Origin: Promethearchaeota archaeon
GTDB lineage: Archaea; Asgardarchaeota; Lokiarchaeia; Sigyniarchaeales; SOKP01
Length of the DNA stretch: 50,167 nt
Direction of reading: 5' to 3'
NCBI GenBank assembly: GCA_048940645.1
Contig: JBHLOI010000024.1
Coordinates: 1-50,167 of the forward strand
Shown here: piece by piece, positions 1 to 28,339 of the stretch
Position numbering within the stretch: the first letter of the stretch is position 1
Layout: each line of letters starts with the position of its first letter
Translations under genes and position numbers: made by a program
The notes under the pieces: generated by a model
Told to the model about the DNA's origin: nothing
What the model saw: the letters and a program-made list of their open reading frames with translations, nothing else
Databases searched by the model: none

Positions 1-94
1 TAAATAATTCAAAGAACTCCTATTAAAAAATTTAGAGATTTTTTTTAGTTTAAAAAAATTCTTCTAAAGGAAAAATTCACTCTCTTCCATAAGA

Positions 95-661
95 TCACCT
101 GCTTTCCATCTTTTCAAGAGCTAATTCTGTAAGTAGTTCAAATGTTTTATTAACATTTTGTCCAGTTTTAGCAGAAACTTCTGCAAATCCTGAAAGGTTA
201 TTTTTTTCTGCTATTTGAATCCCAAAATCTCTTGATATCTTACGTTGAGTATTTAAATCTATTTTTGATCCCACAAGTAAAATTGGAATTCCACCAGCTT
301 TTTGTCTTATTATTCTTACCCATTCGGGTATATTGTCTAAAGTGGGAGGACGAGTGACATCATAAAGAAGGAAAGCAGCATTTGCTCCCAAACAATATGT
401 AGGGAGTAAAAATCGAAATCTTTCTTCTCTACCCACATCCCATATTTGCAATTTAATTATTTTTCCATGTAAATTTATTGTTCTAGCAAGAAAATCCACA
501 CCAATTGTTAGTCTTTCTGCGGGATTAAAAATATTATAACAATATCTTTTAGCAAAAGATTGTTTCCCCACAGATTTATCGCCGAGGAGAAGTATTTTGA
601 AATTAAAATCATAAATTGGCATTTTAGTATTTAATAATTCATTGAGGAGGTATGTATTCAC
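95..661 (-). CDS. Rab-like small GTPase (Asgard type)
   Basis: G1 GDKSVGKQS, switch I TIGVDF, KLQIWD..EERFR, G4 SKID, G5 EVSAK; no C-terminal prenylation Cys. Confidence 0.9.
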   Translation of the reverse strand: MNTYLLNELLNTKMPIYDFNFKILLLGDKSVGKQSFAKRYCYNIFNPAERLTIGVDFLARTINLHGKIIKLQIWDVGREERFRFLLPTYCLGANAAFLLYDVTRPPTLDNIPEWVRIIRQKAGGIPILLVGSKIDLNTQRKISRDFGIQIAEKNNLSGFAEVSAKTGQNVNKTFELLTELALEKMESR

Positions 662-856
662 ATCCTTCTGCTGAATTTATAGATGTGTAATTAAAAATGT
701 AATTGATTTCTAATTATTACTCTTTCCGTTATTAATATAAAGAACTAAGCATATAAATTTCACACTTCTGTCAGTTTTTCTGACACACAAGAACATACAA
801 GAATTTTATTAGTTTTTCACGGGACATACAAGAAGTTTGCATATCCGTTCATACTT

Positions 857-2383
857 TTAATCAACCTTCTTTCCACACAATTTACAATACTTCTGCTCCT
901 TTTTTAGTTTACTTCTACAATACTTACAATAGAGCTCAACTTCAGGTTCTTCTTCCTTAACAGATTTTTTCACTTGTAACTGAGTAGCAACTCCTAAGTC
1001 GCCTGGTGGTTTCGGAGGTTTGAAGATGTAAGGATATGGAAATCGATCTCCTTTATAACGTTTTCTATCTATATCTACTAATCGTGTGGGTATACCTGCC
1101 ATTAAACACGCTAAGATGTTAAAACAATCTTCTACTCCTGTCCCTTTTTTAGCTGATGTTTCTATATAATATAAATTGAATTTTCTAGTGAATTTATTTA
1201 TTTTTTCAATTGGAATTGCTCTTTGGTCTGTTAAATCGCTTTTATTTCCCACAAGTAAAATTGGAAGCTCTTTGTTAACGCGAGCCTTTAATTCTTCAAT
1301 CCATAATGGTAAATGCTCAAAACTTGAAGGATTAGTAAGATCAAAAACTAGAAATGCACCTAATAACCCGCCATAATACTTAGGTCTTAGAAAAGAAAAT
1401 CTTGCTCGGCAACCAGCGTCCCAAAGCTGTAATTTACATTTAATTTGACCCTTCGCAGTATTGATAGGTACAGTATTTACATGAAAATCTAAACCTATAG
1501 TCATTTTATAATCGTCTGTAAAGAACCCGTTTGAAAATTTATGGGCTAAAGCTGTCTTACCGACTTCACTATCTCCAAGCAAAAGACATTTAAAATTATT
1601 TGATAATTCAGGCTCAAATGTCATTTGTGCGATTTTTTCACAAATCCTTCTACAATCTAATAATATTAGCCCAAGTCGTTCATCTTTATCTGCTAAAACC
1701 ATTAATAAAGCATTGGGACCAGCTTGTAGAAATAAAAGATACCCATTGGAACCTTTTATATATAGTTGATCAAAGTCACCTCTTTTCATCTCAAAAACAG
1801 CTATTTCAGATAAGGAAAGAAGCGTAGGAGCTATAAGACCCATTATCATTTTATTAACATATTTCGGAATTATTGAAGTGATTGGCATCCCATTTTTTGA
1901 TATTACTACTGCAGTTTTCTTCATAGTAAAAGAAGGAAATAAAGAAGAAAATGGTGCAATATAGGGAAATGTTGTTGTAGGTTCATAGAATTCATTAGAT
2001 CCCAAACTTTCTGATGCAATTTTTTCACAAGTTCTTTTACAATCTAATAATATTTGCCCAAGTCGTACATCCTTATCTACAGATTTCATTAAAAATGCAT
2101 CACGCGCATCAATAACCAAAAGATAACCGTTAGAACCCCTGAGATATAGTTGATCAAAATCACCCTTTCCTGTCTCATTAATGGCTCGTTCAGATAAGGA
2201 GAGTAATGTAGCGGTCATCGCAGCGATCTTTTTTTCATCAATATCTTTTGGAAGACTTGAAGCAATAGGTAAACCAGTTTTATTCGCAATTAATGTGTTT
2301 TCAGTTAAGGAAATGACTCCAAAAGAATCTTCTCTTCTTTTTCTTTTAGCATCATCATAAGAATAAGGTTCCATAGAATTCAC
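857..2383 (-). CDS. Fusion: Roadblock-Roadblock-Rab-like GTPase-proline-rich motif-zinc ribbon
   Basis: Two repeats of GLPI..S...IAAMTATLLSLSE..GDFDQLY.KGSNGY (MglB/Roadblock); GDSEVGKT, TIGLDF, NKSD, ETSAK; tail FPYPYIFKPPKPPGDLG and CKYC..CKLC. Confidence 0.88.
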   Translation of the reverse strand: MNSMEPYSYDDAKRKRREDSFGVISLTENTLIANKTGLPIASSLPKDIDEKKIAAMTATLLSLSERAINETGKGDFDQLYLRGSNGYLLVIDARDAFLMKSVDKDVRLGQILLDCKRTCEKIASESLGSNEFYEPTTTFPYIAPFSSLFPSFTMKKTAVVISKNGMPITSIIPKYVNKMIMGLIAPTLLSLSEIAVFEMKRGDFDQLYIKGSNGYLLFLQAGPNALLMVLADKDERLGLILLDCRRICEKIAQMTFEPELSNNFKCLLLGDSEVGKTALAHKFSNGFFTDDYKMTIGLDFHVNTVPINTAKGQIKCKLQLWDAGCRARFSFLRPKYYGGLLGAFLVFDLTNPSSFEHLPLWIEELKARVNKELPILLVGNKSDLTDQRAIPIEKINKFTRKFNLYYIETSAKKGTGVEDCFNILACLMAGIPTRLVDIDRKRYKGDRFPYPYIFKPPKPPGDLGVATQLQVKKSVKEEEPEVELYCKYCRSKLKKEQKYCKLCGKKVD

Positions 2384-2485
2384 ATTTTTTATACTTTGGA
2401 TTTAATTTTTTAGTTAGTATTGTTTTTTAATTATCTATTTAACTTTTTTACCACATATTCGGCAATAATGGAACGCATGAAACAT

Positions 2486-3004
2486 CTATTTAGGCTTTTT
2501 TCTACAGTTATGAGAAAATTGCTCGTCTTTAGTAAGTTCCATGCCACAATATTGGCAATAAATTTTACTTTCTGGCTTTTTTTTAATAGGTATTTTTATT
2601 TGTGACTGTGATTCAGCTCCCAAATCTCCTGGAGGACCTGGAGGTTTGAATATATATGGGAATGGAAAAAAATCGTCATCGTCAAAAATTCCTATTAACC
2701 CAAGCCTAATATCATTGTCTGCTAATACTATTAATATAGCATTAAGTCCTGCTTGAAGGATTAATATATAGGAATCAGAGCCTTTAATATATAATTGATC
2801 AAAATCACCCCTCTGCATTTCAGTTATAGCTTTTTTTGATAAGGAAAATAGCGTAGCAGTCATCGCAGCGATTCTTGTATTATCAACATCACTAGGGAGT
2901 GCTAAAGCAATTGGGAGACCTTCCACTGAGACGATAGCAGCAGCTTTTATTCCGGGAATCCCCTTTAAAAGTTTGTTCAACCTTTCATCAGCAGCAGATC
3001 CCAT
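2486..3004 (-). CDS. Roadblock/LC7 (MglB-like) protein with proline-rich motif and zinc-ribbon tail
   Basis: AAAIVSVEGLPIA...RIAAMTATL...GDFDQLYIKG; FPFPYIFKPPGPPGDLG; CQYC...HNC. Confidence 0.88.
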   Translation of the reverse strand: MGSAADERLNKLLKGIPGIKAAAIVSVEGLPIALALPSDVDNTRIAAMTATLFSLSKKAITEMQRGDFDQLYIKGSDSYILILQAGLNAILIVLADNDIRLGLIGIFDDDDFFPFPYIFKPPGPPGDLGAESQSQIKIPIKKKPESKIYCQYCGMELTKDEQFSHNCRKKPK

Positions 3005-3130
3005 AGAAAAACCGGTTCCAATAATTTAAGTCATATTTTTAATATAGGTGAACATTTATTTATAAAATTATACGTAATTGTAAATATTAGAAAATATATT
3101 AAGTGACCAAATTTTGGTTGATCTATAATT

Positions 3131-4294
3131 TCAATAGAAGTAAAATTTTTCTGAACCCTTTTGTTCTGAGGATATTTTTCCCTTTTTTACTAGATTTGTT
3201 AAAATCTCCTCTATCATGTTAGGAGTCATCTTGGATTTTAATTGTTCATTAAATCCCAATTCATTAATTCTATGGTATAATGCTTGTACTGTAAATGCTT
3301 TACCTTCGTTTTCTTTAAAATAGTAATAAAGGTGATTCTCGTCTAGAAGCATGCTCTGCTCAAGTTGGGGTTTCTCTTCAGCACTCTCTTGAGATATCTT
3401 TAAATCATCTTCTCTTTTTACAATTATTTTCTTCGAATAAATTTCTTCTAAACAATTCAACAAAGAATTAATAGCTCTACCATGTTTTTTAAGAGGATAT
3501 GAAAATTGATCAATTTGAAAATAGGTTAGTTCTTTAAAAGGAATAAAAATTGTTGATACATCGATTTCACTAACGAATTTAGACATTACACCGTAACCTG
3601 TACCAAAATGAGGGATACTTTCCATAATATTTATTAAATCCTTCTTTTGATTTAGATAATCCACGAGAGCAGTTGTTTTTTTATTATATTTTACCTTTCT
3701 CGGCATTATGCTTAAAAGGTCCATAGTTTCTCTTGAGAATTTCATAAGACCAAATAAATCAATGAAAAGATCAAATTCGATTATTTCATAGGGGAAAAAA
3801 TTTGGCATAATTTTTTTAAATTTTTCAATTCTCTTAACGATTTCAGTTTCAACCGACTCAAACGGAGCAAAATAATACTTTCCCCCTCCATGTTTACTGG
3901 TTTTACACACTCGTCCAAATATAAAGGAACTTGGAATAGGGAAATCTAAAACACCTGTCCACATATAACGTGAAGTGAAATACATTGAGGTTTTCATTGT
4001 ATCACTTTTGTATACCATTCTCTTAAGGAAGTAATCCTTGAACTCAAAAACGACCTTGACAAAGTTTTGCGAATATCCTTGGATAAATTTAATCTCTTTA
4101 TCGATCTTTTTTATCTCTCTCCCATTTTTCCCGAATTTTTTATACTCTAATTTCGCAATTTCTTCATTTGAATTAAGTCCTTTAATAACATAATTTGGAG
4201 GGGGCTCTAATTGAAATCCGTTTATTACAGAGTCAATAGCTTTTTGAGCATTTTTTTGTTGGATTTTTGTCACAGTATTTTCATTATAAGACAT
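3131..4294 (-). CDS. Hypothetical protein, possible C-terminal winged helix
   Basis: 387-aa ORF; C-terminal FT.QALY....IEEILTNLVKKGKI resembles a wHTH. Confidence 0.6.
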   Translation of the reverse strand: MSYNENTVTKIQQKNAQKAIDSVINGFQLEPPPNYVIKGLNSNEEIAKLEYKKFGKNGREIKKIDKEIKFIQGYSQNFVKVVFEFKDYFLKRMVYKSDTMKTSMYFTSRYMWTGVLDFPIPSSFIFGRVCKTSKHGGGKYYFAPFESVETEIVKRIEKFKKIMPNFFPYEIIEFDLFIDLFGLMKFSRETMDLLSIMPRKVKYNKKTTALVDYLNQKKDLINIMESIPHFGTGYGVMSKFVSEIDVSTIFIPFKELTYFQIDQFSYPLKKHGRAINSLLNCLEEIYSKKIIVKREDDLKISQESAEEKPQLEQSMLLDENHLYYYFKENEGKAFTVQALYHRINELGFNEQLKSKMTPNMIEEILTNLVKKGKISSEQKGSEKFYFY

Positions 4295-4336
4295 TTTAAA
4301 TTCAACTCTTCATATCTATTTAAAACTTTTCTTAAT

Positions 4337-5200
4337 TTACTGAGTCAATATTTTAAGAAATTCTCCAAGAAGAATGGTTGTATGGTCAGAAATTTCATTT
4401 AGGTAATTCATCACTTTTGACTTATCCTCTTCTTTGATTATTTTTTCCACTAAATTTAAATCCTCTTGTGCAATTTTTTGTTGCAAATTTGAACTTAAAT
4501 CAAATGCTTGTTGGAAGTATTTTAAACCATCTTCAAGATGCTCGTAATCTCGAATCTCCGTAGATGTAAAAGTCAATTTTTCTCGTAAGAAATTGTAACC
4601 TTTAAGACGGAGTGAGATGGCTTCCAATTCGTTCTTCAATATCCTTTTTCCACTTTCTGAAAATTTTCTTGTTTCAATAATTGTTTTCAACATATTATAG
4701 ACTTTTTCTTGATGAACTTCTTTCTCTAATGGTTCACTATATAGTGAAGCTTTTCTTGCAATGAAGAAGGTTGGTACCATGAATGCTGCAGCAATAAATT
4801 GACCATATACAGCAAAAGATGGACTCAATAATGACCAAAACGATTCACTTGCATTAATAACAAAATATAATTCATAGGATATTAGGTAAAATAGCGTAGC
4901 TCCAAAAAGAATAAGAGGACTGATACCAGCTGAAATATGTGCATAATCACTCTTTCTTTTTACTTTTACAGCAGCGAATATACTTAAGCAATTCCCGATC
5001 ACTACAAATACAGTCGAAAAAATTGAGAATAAAGAGAGATAACGATTTGCTGTCCAAAAAATCTCTGTGCCAACTTCCCAATCATAAATGATATTATAAC
5101 CAAACATCCACATATCCCACGAATACAGATTTCCATAATGAAAACTGCCTGCGGGAGCAATCAATGAAAGTAACCCAATAATAGAGCCAAATAATAACAA
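4337..5200 (-). CDS. Membrane protein (about 4 TM segments) with a soluble helical C-terminus
   Basis: Hydrophobic N-terminal half, charged C-terminal half; the frame stays open upstream, so the true start may be earlier. Confidence 0.7.
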   Translation of the reverse strand: MLLFGSIIGLLSLIAPAGSFHYGNLYSWDMWMFGYNIIYDWEVGTEIFWTANRYLSLFSIFSTVFVVIGNCLSIFAAVKVKRKSDYAHISAGISPLILFGATLFYLISYELYFVINASESFWSLLSPSFAVYGQFIAAAFMVPTFFIARKASLYSEPLEKEVHQEKVYNMLKTIIETRKFSESGKRILKNELEAISLRLKGYNFLREKLTFTSTEIRDYEHLEDGLKYFQQAFDLSSNLQQKIAQEDLNLVEKIIKEEDKSKVMNYLNEISDHTTILLGEFLKILTQ

Positions 5201-5478
5201 AATCCAGCTATAATTTGACCCTTTCCTTTTTTTGGGTGCTGAATAATTCTGAATTTTTAACCCTCTTTTATAATCATTAAGAAAATATTATTTTATTATT
5301 ATATAAATGTTATAAAATGACAAACTCCAACCTAATTGAAGAATTTTCAAATTTTATTAAAATAGATTGGGTAGATAATCGTAATTATACGAAATATTTG
5401 TAAAAAATAATCGAAATGGTTATTAAATAATTGAAATAATTATAATTTAACAACAATTTCTCAAAAATTTAAAGTTAT

Positions 5479-5634
5479 ATGGCTACAATTGACCTTACTG
5501 ATATAGTAAAGAAAAAATTAAAGGAATACATGGATAAAAAAGGATGCAAAACGTATTCTGAATGTGTAAATTTACTTTTAGAATTCGCAGATGCTCGTGA
5601 CGGGACATTAAATAATATTCAAAATAATAAGTAA
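5479..5634 (+). CDS. Small ribbon-helix-helix (CopG/antitoxin-like) protein, 51 aa, not in ORF track
   Basis: Manual translation MATIDLTDIVKKKLKEYMDKKGCKTYSECVNLLLEFADARDGTLNNIQNNK; TIxL..beta-helix-TYS-helix RHH pattern. Confidence 0.6.
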   Translation: MATIDLTDIVKKKLKEYMDKKGCKTYSECVNLLLEFADARDGTLNNIQNNK

Positions 5635-5777
5635 AAATATATTGATAAATCAGTAATTCTATTCTCTATTTCTAAATGACTGATAAAAGAAATTCGATTA
5701 TTTTAGGAAAACTACATTGAATTTGTCTTTATAGATTCTATTTAAAATTTACATGATTTTTAATTATTACTTCTTCG

Positions 5778-6428
5778 CTATAACTCAACCTTATTTCCAC
5801 ATAAGCGACAAAATTTTTGTTCTTTTTTTAGTCTGCATCCACAATATTTACAATAAAATTCAATTTCCAATTCTTCTTCTTTAACAGGTTTTTGCACTTG
5901 TGACTGAGTTTCAACCCCTAAATCTCCAGGTGGTACTGGAGGCTTGAAGATGTAGGGATATGGATATCTATCATCATCCTCATTTGCTATACTTTTTAAT
6001 TCTTCAGCAGAACTTTTTAAAATAAGCCTAATCAAACCTATACTTATATCGGGTTCAGAAATGATCGTAAGCATCATTTTAGTTCCACAAGCTGATGTAA
6101 ATATTTTACCTCCTGAGAATTCAGTGGTGACGATTTCTAAGTCTCCAAGTTCAAGGCTTTTTCCTTGATCTTCCGATGCACAGTAAACAGCACTTGCTAT
6201 TGCTCCTATTCCATCGATATCAACTTGAAAATAATTAAATTTAGACACATTTGAGATTGTTAAACCCGTTCTATCAACCAAAATGACTTTTTTAATTCCA
6301 CTTTCTGACTTTATAATTTTACTTAAAATCTCTTTAAGTATTCCAATGTTATAATTAGCACCAAAAAATTGATTTCTCCTTCTTTTTCTTTTTATACCGT
6401 TGGCAGCATAAGGTTCCATAGAATGCAT
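5778..6428 (-). CDS. Roadblock/LC7 protein (second subtype) with proline-rich motif and zinc-ribbon tail
   Basis: LVDRTGLTIS...DGIGAIASAVY..EFSGGKIF; YPYPYIFKPPVPPGDLG; CKYC..CRLC. Confidence 0.85.
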   Translation of the reverse strand: MHSMEPYAANGIKRKRRRNQFFGANYNIGILKEILSKIIKSESGIKKVILVDRTGLTISNVSKFNYFQVDIDGIGAIASAVYCASEDQGKSLELGDLEIVTTEFSGGKIFTSACGTKMMLTIISEPDISIGLIRLILKSSAEELKSIANEDDDRYPYPYIFKPPVPPGDLGVETQSQVQKPVKEEELEIEFYCKYCGCRLKKEQKFCRLCGNKVEL

Positions 6429-6483
6429 GGGTTTTATCTCTGGATTTATTTAGTATATACAGATAATATCTAGCTTATCCAAG

Positions 6484-6693
6484 CTAGAATTGTATAACAG
6501 AATTTACATCTAATTGTTTCTCCCTTGAAAATTTTTTGACTGCAACAGTGGGAAGGTATTTCTCTTCGTATTGAGTGGATACAAATTTAGTTAATAACTT
6601 TGTCTTCTCTGAAGCAGGATCACCTATAACTATCACTTTGTATAATATATCTTCTAAAAGCTTTTTCCGCACTTCATCAGCGGCAGATCCCAT
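6484..6693 (-). pseudogene. Truncated, degenerate small GTPase
   Basis: YKVIVIGDPASEKTKLL...YLPTV is a degenerate G1/G2 only; N-terminus MGSAADE shared with 2486..3004. Confidence 0.7.
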
Positions 6694-7030
6694 AGAAAAT
6701 GCCTTTTCAATTATTTAAAGTGGTATTTTCAATTCAGGTGAAACTGTATTTATAAATTCAAACAGTAAATGTTAATTAAAAACAAGTAAAGAATTATATA
6801 TATAATATTTGTAGTTATTAAAAGAAATTAAAAGAATTATTAACTATTCCCATTATTAAATTAATACATTACTAAACCTACTTTTCTATTTTTGAAATAT
6901 AATAATTTATAAATATATCTCATCAAAGTCATTCATTTTGTAATATTATTCTGCAGATATGGTTTGAAATATTATCAGTATCAATATATAGTTTAATATT
7001 TTAGAGATTACAAAAAAAGGAGTTTTTAAA

Positions 7031-7402
7031 ATGGAAAAAATAAACAGACTACAAATAAACACCATTATAAAGATACCTGAGGGAAGACTAGAATTATTCA
7101 AGCAATTCGCAGTCGAGAGTATAAGACTCACAAGTGAAAGAGACACAGGAGTCCTTAAGCAAGACTGGTTTATTAGCAAAGGTCAGACAGAGGGCGTAAT
7201 TCATGAGGAATACAAGAATTCAGAAGCTGTGCTCGAGCATATGGCTAACATGAGCGAAATTCGAGAACTTGCTAGTAATTTCTCTATAGATCACGTGAAT
7301 GTGTACGGTGACCCCTCGCCGGAACTTCTAGAAATGACAAAAGGCGCTAATATGAGGGTGTATTCTTTCTTCCAAGGAGTGGAAGAAATGATTGAAGCCT
7401 AA
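7031..7402 (+). CDS. Antibiotic biosynthesis monooxygenase (ABM)-like protein
   Basis: IPEGRLELFK...GVL.QDWF...HEEYKNSEAVLEH...VYGDPS dimeric alpha/beta barrel pattern. Confidence 0.7.
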   Translation: MEKINRLQINTIIKIPEGRLELFKQFAVESIRLTSERDTGVLKQDWFISKGQTEGVIHEEYKNSEAVLEHMANMSEIRELASNFSIDHVNVYGDPSPELLEMTKGANMRVYSFFQGVEEMIEA

Positions 7403-7528
7403 TATTTTTTTTATTATATTTTTTAAAGGAATTTTCATTGAAATCAGACTCTGAATTATCCTTTTTTGTGGATTTTTTAAGATCTATACTTTTTTTTTTG
7501 ACGATTAATTTACTTAATTTAATTAAAA

Positions 7529-8110
7529 ATGAAGATTCCTGTACTCAAGAAATTTTCATCTATTGCCTGTTGCGGTATAGATTGTGGATTATGCCCAACT
7601 TATTATACAAAGGGATCTTCAAGATGTCCGGGTTGCGGGGGACCAGAGTTTTCCAACAAGCATCCTTCTTGCTCAATTCTAACCTGTGCTGTTAAAAAAA
7701 AAGGTCTTGAAACGTGTGCAGACTGTGAACAATATCCTTGCGAAAAGATTAAATTATGGGATAAGGCAGACTCTTTTGTTACCCATAAAGTATGTCTTCA
7801 AAACCTGAATGAAATCAAACAAAACGGATTGGAAAAATTTATTGAACAGCAAAATATTCGGGTGAAAATTCTTGGAACTTTACTGAATTCTTTTAATGAG
7901 GGAAGGTCAAAGAGTTTTTTCTGTATTGCTGCTACTCTACTTACGATTGATGATCTAAATGAGAGTATTAAAAAAGCACAAAAAAAAATTGGAGAGGAGA
8001 ATATTCGTACAAACGATTTAAAATCTAAATCAAAAATTGTAAAAGAGATACTAAATCAATATGCCAAAAGTAAGAACATTGAGTTAAAGTTAAGAAGGAA
8101 AACTAAGTAA
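7529..8110 (+). CDS. DUF3795-family Cys-rich protein
   Basis: CCGIDCGLCP...CPGC...C.ILTC...CADC..YPC. Confidence 0.8.
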   Translation: MKIPVLKKFSSIACCGIDCGLCPTYYTKGSSRCPGCGGPEFSNKHPSCSILTCAVKKKGLETCADCEQYPCEKIKLWDKADSFVTHKVCLQNLNEIKQNGLEKFIEQQNIRVKILGTLLNSFNEGRSKSFFCIAATLLTIDDLNESIKKAQKKIGEENIRTNDLKSKSKIVKEILNQYAKSKNIELKLRRKTK

Positions 8111-8199
8111 TATCTTCAATACGTAACGTAAAAAGTAAATATTTATATTCAAGGTTAGTTTAACCAACTTTTAATCTATATCAGACGGATCATTACCTT

Positions 8200-8760
8200 T
8201 TAGATAAAGAAGGGAACTACAAGTGCCACAAGAGAAACTATGAATGGCAAAATAGTCATAATTGACAAAATTAAACCAATTATCCCTCCAATCATTTCTA
8301 AAATGGGTATTTTCTCTTCTCTGAAACCTTTTAGACTATATATCATTCCAATTAATAGAAAAGGTATAGCAACCAAATTTAAGAGAACTCTATAATCCGT
8401 AGAGCCATAAACCCAAATATTGAAATACCCATACACGGCCGAAACGAGATCTGGTGGAGTAGATATCAAATAAATTACTAATGCAACTACCGCTGATACG
8501 ATCGAGATAATTGCATTTTTTCTGAAATAATCCCGAAATCTTCTTGATATCTCCCCCACAATTTCATTTTTCTTAATGAATAAAATCCAAATCCCACCTA
8601 ATATTGCTAAGAGAAATCCGACCAAAATCGTTGGAAATCCTTCAGAACTTAAAAGTCCTAAACTCACTATATCTGCTGCAATCAAAATTGCTCCTATAAG
8701 AATTATAACAAATGGGATTTTATACTTTTCTTCAATAAAAAGTCCAGTCATTATATTCAC
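8200..8760 (-). CDS. Hypothetical membrane protein
   Basis: About 5 hydrophobic segments. Confidence 0.65.
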   Translation of the reverse strand: MNIMTGLFIEEKYKIPFVIILIGAILIAADIVSLGLLSSEGFPTILVGFLLAILGGIWILFIKKNEIVGEISRRFRDYFRKNAIISIVSAVVALVIYLISTPPDLVSAVYGYFNIWVYGSTDYRVLLNLVAIPFLLIGMIYSLKGFREEKIPILEMIGGIIGLILSIMTILPFIVSLVALVVPFFI

Positions 8761-8765
8761 TCATT

Positions 8766-9230
8766 TCACAGATTCTGCTTCAGTTTTTGAGCAAATTCTT
8801 CTGCATGTTTGAGGTCTTCAGCATTTGGTCTACCCTTATTCATTCCCCCAAAATATTTCATAAAACTATTTGTGTTAAAACCTTTACACTGAAAGTCATC
8901 GAGAATTACATAACCTTTCGAATGCAGTTTTTCCCTAAGTAGCGAGTGATCCATGGCGACTTTGGCTTTTCCTGTCAATGCAGCGGTCGAAAAAATGAAT
9001 GCTTTCCTGTTGGTGATATGTGGTATAGTATCGGCAAGGTCAAGCAGAAGTTTATGGTGTTTTCCGCCATATATCCCTGAACCAAAGCCAGTTAGCCCAT
9101 ATTCTTGAAGCTCTTCAGCCTTAATTTGCTCTGGCGTTTTTATCTGTGCATCAAGTACTTTTGCGATGACGTTAGCGATCTTCTCGGTATTCTTGTGATG
9201 ATATGAAAACAAAACCAATAGAGATTTCAT
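8766..9230 (-). CDS. Flavodoxin family protein
   Basis: SYHHKNTEKIA, GFGSGIY, GRPNAEDL..AEEF. Confidence 0.85.
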   Translation of the reverse strand: MKSLLVLFSYHHKNTEKIANVIAKVLDAQIKTPEQIKAEELQEYGLTGFGSGIYGGKHHKLLLDLADTIPHITNRKAFIFSTAALTGKAKVAMDHSLLREKLHSKGYVILDDFQCKGFNTNSFMKYFGGMNKGRPNAEDLKHAEEFAQKLKQNL

Positions 9231-27790: not shown

Positions 27791-28339
27791 TCAAACATCT
27801 AAATCATTATCAACACCGATCATAAGACAACTAATAATATAAAAACAATCATTTACATGATTTCCTGTTTTAGCTGAGGTTTCTATATAGCGCAAGTTGA
27901 AGTCTTTTGCAAAATCATTTACTTCTTCGATAGAAACGGCTCTTTGGTCAGTTAAATCGCTTTTATTACCAACTAATAAAAGAGGGATTTCAATATTTAT
28001 ATTTTTTCGCACTTCTTCTATCCATTTGAAAAGATGCTCAAAACTAGCATAATTTGTTAAGTCAAATACTAAAATTGCTCCAAGAGCACCTCGATAATAC
28101 ATAGGTCTTATAGCACCGAATCGTTCTTCTCCACCTGTGTCCCATACTTGTAACTTGCACCTAATAACTCCCTCATCTGTATCTATGGATATAGTTTTAA
28201 CGTTAAAATCTACTCCAATGGTCATTTTATAATCTTCAGTAAAAATCCCTTTTGAAAATCTGATAGTTAAAGCTGTTTTACCTACCCCACCATCTCCTAT
28301 AACAATCGTTTTAAAAAGATACTCATACTCCTGAGCCAT
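27791..28339 (-). CDS. Rab-like small GTPase
   Basis: GDGGVGKT, TIGVDF, WDTGG, YYRGA, NKSD, ETSAK. Confidence 0.93.
   Translation of the reverse strand: MAQEYEYLFKTIVIGDGGVGKTALTIRFSKGIFTEDYKMTIGVDFNVKTISIDTDEGVIRCKLQVWDTGGEERFGAIRPMYYRGALGAILVFDLTNYASFEHLFKWIEEVRKNINIEIPLLLVGNKSDLTDQRAVSIEEVNDFAKDFNLRYIETSAKTGNHVNDCFYIISCLMIGVDNDLDV

Follow-up and report, generated by a model that had tools for sequence, protein, structure and literature searches.

Roadblock and GTPase cores of different kinds between shared terminal modules at a lokiarchaeal locus

Small GTPases and Roadblock/longin proteins number in the dozens in Asgard archaea. In a Loki-type archaeon, multidomain small GTPases with fused Roadblock or longin domains have been described, and GTPase genes generally lay outside operons with Roadblock genes (Tran et al. 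2024, PMC10933270). A 'Zn domain', a small (CxxC)2 module, was reported from a lokiarchaeal two-domain gelsolin and from unrelated Loki proteins; it is found only C-terminally on multidomain proteins, its linker can be rich in proline repeats, and a role in binding was suggested for it (Akil et al. 2022, PMC9433394). Here we describe a locus on a 50,167-nucleotide (nt) stretch, referred to as the window, of contig JBHLOI010000024.1 (our C30) from the Promethearchaeota archaeon assembly GCA_048940645.1 (Sigyniarchaeales; G000 in our genome set), a 3.83-Mb bin in 126 contigs with 30% GC. Two two-gene cassettes on its minus strand, A (857-3085, genes A1 and A2) and B (5785-6776, genes B1 and B2), carry Roadblock and GTPase cores of different kinds between common end modules, an N-terminal head and a C-terminal tail. 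We believe that segmental duplication, followed by recombination and insertion/deletion (indel) turnover among paralogues with these common ends, probably gave rise to the locus, the ends themselves probably being docking or targeting peptides. Since Roadblock-GTPase fusions and promiscuous C-terminal Zn modules in Loki have already been published, the gain is incremental; we found no description of this tail, of the head or of turnover at the level of the locus in the literature that we searched.

Comparison of positions 5700-6900 with 800-3200 by blastn revealed three collinear same-strand blocks common to both cassettes at 76-79% nucleotide identity, bearing out an earlier reading of the letters alone (the sequence-only reading), which had noticed two gene pairs with common upstream DNA and N-terminal pieces. 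Block 1 (6776-6655 against 3085-2966; 77%, 122 nt, E 1e-20) comprises 81-83 nt of upstream DNA (81 promoter-proximal nt in copy A), with a TATA-like TTTATAAATA box and TTCACCT, and the first 13 codons of gene 1. Block 2 (6451-6374 against 2407-2330; 76%, 79 nt, E 2.5e-9) extends from -23 to +54 of gene 2, which in copy A means 24 nt upstream and the first 18 codons of A2 with the head MEPY..KRKRR. Block 3 (5972-5785 against 1048-861; 79%, 188 nt, E 1.6e-43) corresponds to the last 63 codons of gene 2, and the A1 tail DNA (2684-2512) matches it too, at 72%. The DNA between the blocks is non-homologous. Similarity ends at the stop codons save for a weak 37-nt block after the B2 stop (5740-5776 against 690-726, upstream of the gene at 95-661; 81%, minus strand); this possible fourth collinear block is near chance level and similar in size to chance matches of the same repeat list. 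We propose that a segmental duplication produced one of the two-gene units, whose genes are presumably co-transcribed, from the other. Among the 42 genomes of the genus, only this one contained the promoter/helix block of A1 and B1.

That a chimeric assembly of the metagenome bin at the repeated tail sequences produced this picture is scarcely credible. Such an error would suit a genome in 126 contigs, and contigs of the relative G019 do break exactly at tails, but the repeats are just 72-79% identical, too diverged to mis-join, and a 6.9-kb contig spans 531-7400, though it possibly comes from the source sample. All four proteins recur on 3-6 contigs, and short, nearly identical contigs of two further studies bridge the Roadblock2/Rab, Rab/tail and A1/A2 junctions as well as those between the 387-amino-acid (aa) gene and the A1 promoter and between the B2 head and core. 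The arrangement is therefore not an assembly artefact.

Roadblock/LC7 domains (Pfam PF03259, gathering cut-off 23 bits) were detected in A2 (87.8 bits, two stretches), A1 (66.8 bits) and B2 (35.3 bits). A1 (2486-3004, minus strand, 172 aa) is an MglB-type Roadblock (Robl_LC7, E 1.5e-18) followed by a C2HC version of the tail. In alignments it lacks the ..LLDCRRxCEKIAQ segment that forms the last Roadblock helix; its AlphaFold2 (AF2) model, with a predicted local distance difference test score (pLDDT) of about 70-75, likewise runs helix-strands-helix-strands without a C-terminal helix. The peptide MGSAADE, previously taken for a tag, is indeed common to A1 and B1; aligned with relatives, however, MGSAADERLNKLL proves to be the helix with which MglB-type Roadblocks normally begin (..LDDLLKKLL) and is thus native to that domain. 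We also considered MGSAADE as an N-myristoylation-like signal and dropped this idea, residue 6 being D; we know of no N-myristoylation transferase in these archaea.

B1 (6484-6693, minus strand) begins with the same promoter and the same 13 codons of Roadblock helix, joined in this case to GTPase strand 1, P-loop and switch I. The sequence-only reading had it continue as a GTPase, which is correct for the start of the domain but not for an intact one: the 69-aa product matches only the first 46 model positions of Ras in Pfam, its P-loop reads GDPASEKT and is broken, and the frame stops past switch I, 55 nt ahead of the B2 start codon and about 33 nt ahead of the shared head block. B1 is a dead remnant. 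The full genes closest to its stub are one on contig C122 of the same assembly (58%) and a 461-aa double GTPase in the relative G045. As a dead by-product of rearrangement, B1 may have no role left but that of a promoter and leader to B2.

The second genes differ in their cores. A2 (857-2383, minus strand, 508 aa) consists of the head, two Roadblocks, a Rab-like GTPase and a 4-Cys tail (860-1048), as defined by Pfam (Robl_LC7 twice and Ras), repeats and motifs, and we found no other full-length match to this architecture. Its two Roadblocks, 83% identical in their 3' parts, repeat in tandem and in frame at intervals of about 384-387 nt. The linker between them (..FPYIAPFSSLFP..) was examined as a possible decayed tail and was not supported by the tail hidden Markov model (HMM), even without filters. 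The Ras-family domain (PF00071) scores 147 bits and has intact G1, G4 and G5 motifs, with DAGC rather than DxxG at G3, while the GTPase encoded downstream at 95-661 reads GKQ in G1, DVGR in G3 and SKID in G4. Judged from these motifs, the Rab-like G domains at 95-661 and 1064-1609 may be pseudo-GTPases or unusual switches. The A2 Rab domain had earlier been called a close paralog of the stand-alone Rab-like GTPase at 27791-28339 (minus strand). We could not uphold this, as the two are just 60-61% identical; the A2 domain is nearer (64-68%) to the Rab heads of a conserved family of 550-615 aa proteins in relatives, and the stand-alone GTPase is itself 79% identical to the Rab head of a 583-aa G019 protein. 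Nor did we retain the idea that the Rab domain of A2 is the 550-615 aa gene moved to a new place, which the lack of that family in the assembly had prompted: its syntenic region falls at the end of a contig (C7), with the neighbours missing too, and the absence is therefore uninformative.

B2 (5778-6428, minus strand, 216 aa) joins the head to a Roadblock core of another subfamily (5973-6344) and a 4-Cys tail (5781-5972). Pfam assigns this core to Robl_LC7 / MAPKK1_Int, along with a weak Zn ribbon; the match to PF08923 MAPKK1_Int (LAMTOR3/MP1), at 25.1 bits and E 1.6e-5, is barely at the cut-off of 25. The core shares 79% identity with a stand-alone housekeeping Roadblock on contig C61 of the same assembly and 27% with the A1 Roadblock. 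This housekeeping gene is nearly invariant across the genus and was found in all 41 relatives searched. B2 contains its entire domain between head and tail, with only the acidic C-terminus replaced, which would fit a transfer of a copy of the housekeeping LAMTOR3-like Roadblock into the cassette. A separate fusion of the same kind was seen in G008, where a 496-aa protein (L050, C50, 4657-6147) combines an N-terminal domain without assignment, a GTPase and a copy of that genome's own housekeeping LAMTOR3-like Roadblock. The independence of the G008 fusion is supported (95/91) in the tree of LAMTOR3-like cores, which does not place B2 and leaves 5 of 9 inner branches unsupported. The C61 housekeeping frame itself (L047, about 128-583) has no ATG, GTG or TTG where its orthologues start (MSIDTK..) and reads ..KISLDTK..; an ATT or TTA start, or a sequencing error, is possible.

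The head, MEPY..KRKRR..FFG, was strongly matched only in G000 (twice), G045 and G019, with a weaker copy in G049. In these four species it stands before four kinds of core, namely one MglB-type Roadblock (G019 and G045), Roadblock-Roadblock-Rab (A2), a LAMTOR3-like Roadblock (B2) and an unassigned core (G049). The B2 and G045 heads are 95.7% identical over 70 nt, compared with 76% between the B2 and A2 heads. The match pairs positions 6687-6754 of the G045 locus (L066, C54) with window positions 6379-6448, covering 20 nt of upstream DNA and about 17 codons; with the neighbouring orthologous GTPase gene only about 79% identical between the two species, it suggests strong nucleotide-level constraint, or recent transfer or conversion.

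The tail, about 65 aa long, opens with an acidic run and the invariant proline motif P[YF]P[YF]IFKPPxPPGD; a K/E linker that does not vary in length then leads into a small zinc ribbon of 4-Cys or C2HC type. As the sequence-only reading had stated, the tail terminates three proteins: A2 and B2 carry the 4-Cys form (CxxC..CxxC) and A1 the C2HC form (CxxC..HxC, ending ..CRKKPK), which is also that of many relatives. Eighteen tails from different cores were combined in a profile, in which P, P, P, D and three C columns do not vary and the spacing is fixed. In a profile search of 301 genomes of the phylum, the complete tail was confined to two genera of one family, with 13 of 27 genomes positive in one (g1) and 8 of 22 in the other (g12), at one to four copies per genome. 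MglB-type Roadblocks, including a conserved 191-198 aa Roadblock gene adjoining thiolase genes, are the commonest tail-bearing core; the others are one or two Ras domains, an Arf/MglA-like GTPase, a receiver with a coiled coil, and a membrane protein, and several cores give no Pfam match. Complete terminal tails invariably end 1-7 residues from the stop. One G004 protein carries an internal degenerate tail besides its terminal one and is a sign of gene fusion. Between A2 and B2 the tail identities at the three codon positions are 0.84/0.87/0.65; the differences fall mostly at third positions, and purifying selection on the tail therefore follows. AF2 models depict an extended proline segment, at low-to-moderate confidence, and a small zinc ribbon. 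The best matches of the tail profile among all PDB chains were chance-level zinc fingers, and a search of a protein atlas with the tail gave no usable match.

Tail-bearing genes in relatives adjoin a 743-aa protein with an ..EFWGHCSN.. motif and a 601-aa CDC48_N-only protein that ends with a partial proline motif (L051, G044:C116, 1514-3745 and 4661-6815; L044, G019:C67, 881-2686). Two G019 contigs, C255 (3769 nt) and C178 (1612 nt), break within tens of bases of tail sequences. Repeated tails probably fragment short-read assemblies, hiding such loci in other bins.

Within its own genome, neither the N-terminal pieces nor the proline part of the tail was found anywhere but at this locus (exact and loose motif scans, tblastn), and only generic zinc ribbons matched the tail scans elsewhere. 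The sequence-only reading had pictured a fixed expression frame repeatedly loaded with copies of signalling domains. This does not hold, as tags and tail are restricted to the one locus and tails, too, have been lost or replaced.

Clearly homologous loci were available from three species only. In G019, the closest relative, the genes between the cassettes are 89% identical in nucleotide sequence to those of the window, yet the cores at both cassette A positions differ in kind, which bears out the earlier view of the locus as a hotspot, in the sense of domain turnover. The A1 position of G019 holds a 328-aa coiled-coil core unrelated to the A1 core, placed before a tail 92.5% identical to that of A1, with junctions at window 2669/2670 and about 3137. 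Its A2 position, beside the orthologue of the 95-661 gene, holds a head with one Roadblock and a C2HC tail. G045 has the head and a Roadblock without a tail, and upstream of it a fragment of the coiled-coil gene and the tailed 461-aa double GTPase, whose first G domain resembles the B1 stub. On a contig from another sediment we found head, Roadblock, tail and 3' flank together.

These same positions retain scars. In G019 the head-Roadblock gene has two stops, beyond which the same frame reads ..CGSKLIKELEFCRLFGKKVD*, the decayed form of a 4-Cys tail that runs on into 3' flank of the A2 type. Directly past the A1 stop, likewise in frame (2441-2485, minus strand), lies the leftover end of a 4-Cys tail (..YCRICGKKVK*), further decayed in G019. 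Together with the double-tail protein of G004, such pieces show deletions and fusions between tail-bearing neighbours. An ordinary paralogous family, its ends kept alike through function, selection or gene conversion and with no elevated turnover at the locus, would account for the conservation of head and tail across species and for the signature of purifying selection in the tail. We nevertheless find this explanation quite improbable, because divergence would leave neither different kinds of core within flanks as similar as those of G019 nor structural scars such as the chimeric B1 and the tail leftovers past stops.

Deletion contributed to the present state, as the remnants show, and one may ask whether it acted alone, a single duplication of a multidomain ancestor having been followed by differential deletion with no core brought in. 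The decayed tails that directly follow the A1 stop and those of the head-Roadblock gene in G019 speak for such a course, as do the A2 3' flank, kept at 97% in the tailless G045 locus, the G045 order of GTPase-tail and then head-Roadblock, which mirrors that of B1 and B2, and the possible fourth collinear block, which suggests that the whole unit was copied. The genome-wide search for tags and tail that had been proposed with the sequence-only reading agrees with it in part, having yielded no other gene framed by them. Even so, we regard deletion alone as unlikely. Cassette A shows no trace of the B2 core, which is nearest to a stand-alone gene; in G049 the head precedes a core of unrelated type; the only part that A1 has in common with the G019 coiled-coil gene is the tail; and G008 recruited its own housekeeping copy independently. 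Given the LAMTOR3-type core, the G049 core and the alternation of coiled coil and Roadblock, core replacement is needed and pure deletion does not fit.

Replacement could in principle be programmed: a site-specific recombination system or a diversity generator might exchange the cores while the ends stay fixed. Junctions that fall sharply at module borders, and a head nearly identical between species on different cores, would be expected of such a system, but we hold it to be very improbable. Apart from the coding modules themselves, the cores are not flanked by repeats, inverted or direct, the 3.8-Mb assembly holds no other tagged genes or silent cassettes, no recombinase-like open reading frame (ORF) was evident in 1-9230 (not all ORFs there were scanned against Pfam), and strain-level contigs show one fixed arrangement. 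Neither repeat analysis nor these contigs gave any sign of recombination sites, silent cassettes or population variants.

Unprogrammed turnover after segmental duplication is thus the course that we favor. Among paralogues with common ends, homologous and illegitimate recombination together with indels would replace, duplicate, fuse or delete cores, and even tails. A2 would have gained its tandem Roadblock and Rab domain, or the sister species would have lost them, while A1 and its G019 counterpart would have kept the same tail behind unrelated cores. Both modules evolve under purifying selection of their own, independently of the core. This conservation, the strictly terminal position and the combination of a short linear motif with a zinc knuckle lead us to infer that the end modules probably act as docking or targeting peptides, which would gather various switch and regulator domains at a single partner or place.

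Several observations weigh against this account. The near-identity of the B2 and G045 heads goes beyond the divergence of the flanking genes and is without explanation. At third codon positions the B2 core is only 0.51 identical to the housekeeping copy of its own genome, compared with 0.61 between the G000 and G019 orthologues; this is near saturation, and the copy is therefore not recent. Each of the three MglB-type Roadblocks is nearer to an untailed gene on contig C88 of the same assembly (59-76%) than to the others (50-55%), and their tree is a star with 12 of 17 inner branches unsupported. The per-domain phylogenies suggested earlier are in this way largely unresolved, those of the LAMTOR3-like cores included, and the G008 duplication is the only independent event that they support. 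Of the three species with homologous loci, two are represented by short, broken contigs, so that any order or direction of events is tentative, and the AF2 tail models are built on shallow alignments.

On the minus strand the genes follow one another as B1, B2, a membrane/coiled-coil gene, the 387-aa gene, A1, A2 and the degenerate Rab-like GTPase. The two genes between the cassettes (3131-5200), syntenic with G019, encode a 287-aa membrane/coiled-coil protein (4337-5200) and the 387-aa protein (3131-4294). The latter is present in only 5 of the 42 genomes of the genus, and its C-terminus gives a weak Mnd1-type winged-helix match (E 7e-4, below cut-off). A metagenome scan with the same protein returned one locus at 59%, without cassettes. 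In both G019 and G045, synteny at the A2 position is anchored by the degenerate GTPase (95-661, minus strand).

A short conserved tail on a handful of proteins per genome is a handle for finding a common partner. The locus also shows Roadblock-GTPase fusions made and unmade between species that are about 11% diverged in flanking genes, and fusions of such kind are thought to precede Rag-type proteins. More tentatively, head and tail might constitute a lineage-specific 'address' system that brings a few Roadblock, GTPase and receiver proteins together on a common scaffold or membrane site, their shared ends doubling as recombination arms. To our knowledge, Asgard Rabs lack prenylated hypervariable tails; the acidic/proline/zinc-ribbon tail, perhaps with the polybasic-aromatic head, could stand in their place. 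If so, shared ends would let the lineage try new regulator/GTPase combinations quickly, and the partners of archaeal small GTPases would be identifiable through one peptide.

Among described systems, the fusions of Tran et al. (PMC10933270) resemble A2 in uniting Roadblock and GTPase in one polypeptide, Roadblock dimers being thought to act as GTPase platforms. They are, however, mostly Rag/Arf-like, whereas A2 is Roadblock-Roadblock-Rab-like (Ras family) with an extra head and tail, neither of which is described there; and while GTPase genes were generally not in Roadblock operons in that study, GTPase and Roadblock genes are adjacent here. The Loki Zn domain (PMC9433394) shares with our tail the strict C-terminal position on unrelated proteins and, in A2 and B2, the two CxxC pairs. 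The present zinc ribbon differs in being about 25 aa long, in always following P[YF]P[YF]IFKPPxPPGD, in having a C2HC variant and in its restriction to two genera, and the 18-tail profile run against all PDB chains did not match the gelsolin entry at E up to 10. The 550-615 aa Asgard 'GTP-binding protein' family, which combines a Rab head, a long Pro/Glu linker and a C-terminal Zn ribbon, has the same ribbon spacing (C-x2-C-x10-C-x2-C) as the tail, and the Y..PPVPEPP repeats of its linkers recall the tail motif. Its linker runs to hundreds of residues, however, it has neither Roadblock nor head, and the tail profile does not detect it.

The likeness to Rag/Ragulator and MglA/MglB that the sequence-only reading had raised can be placed more exactly. 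A2 has no PF04670 match, its order Roadblock-Roadblock-GTPase is the reverse of that in Rag/Gtr proteins, and Pfam found no Gtr1/RagA-type G domain in the cassettes. A LAMTOR1-like anchor was not identified, partner subunits of Ragulator not having been searched for. By sequence, A1 and A2 have MglB-like Roadblocks, while the G domains beside them match Ras/Roc/Arf models only, with no MglA-specific model among them, and several G domains here have degenerate motifs, unlike those of either system. What the locus has in common with both is a Roadblock-fold regulator paired with a small GTPase, and with Ragulator a core that scores on the LAMTOR3/MP1 model; the resemblance holds at the level of domain families and ends there.

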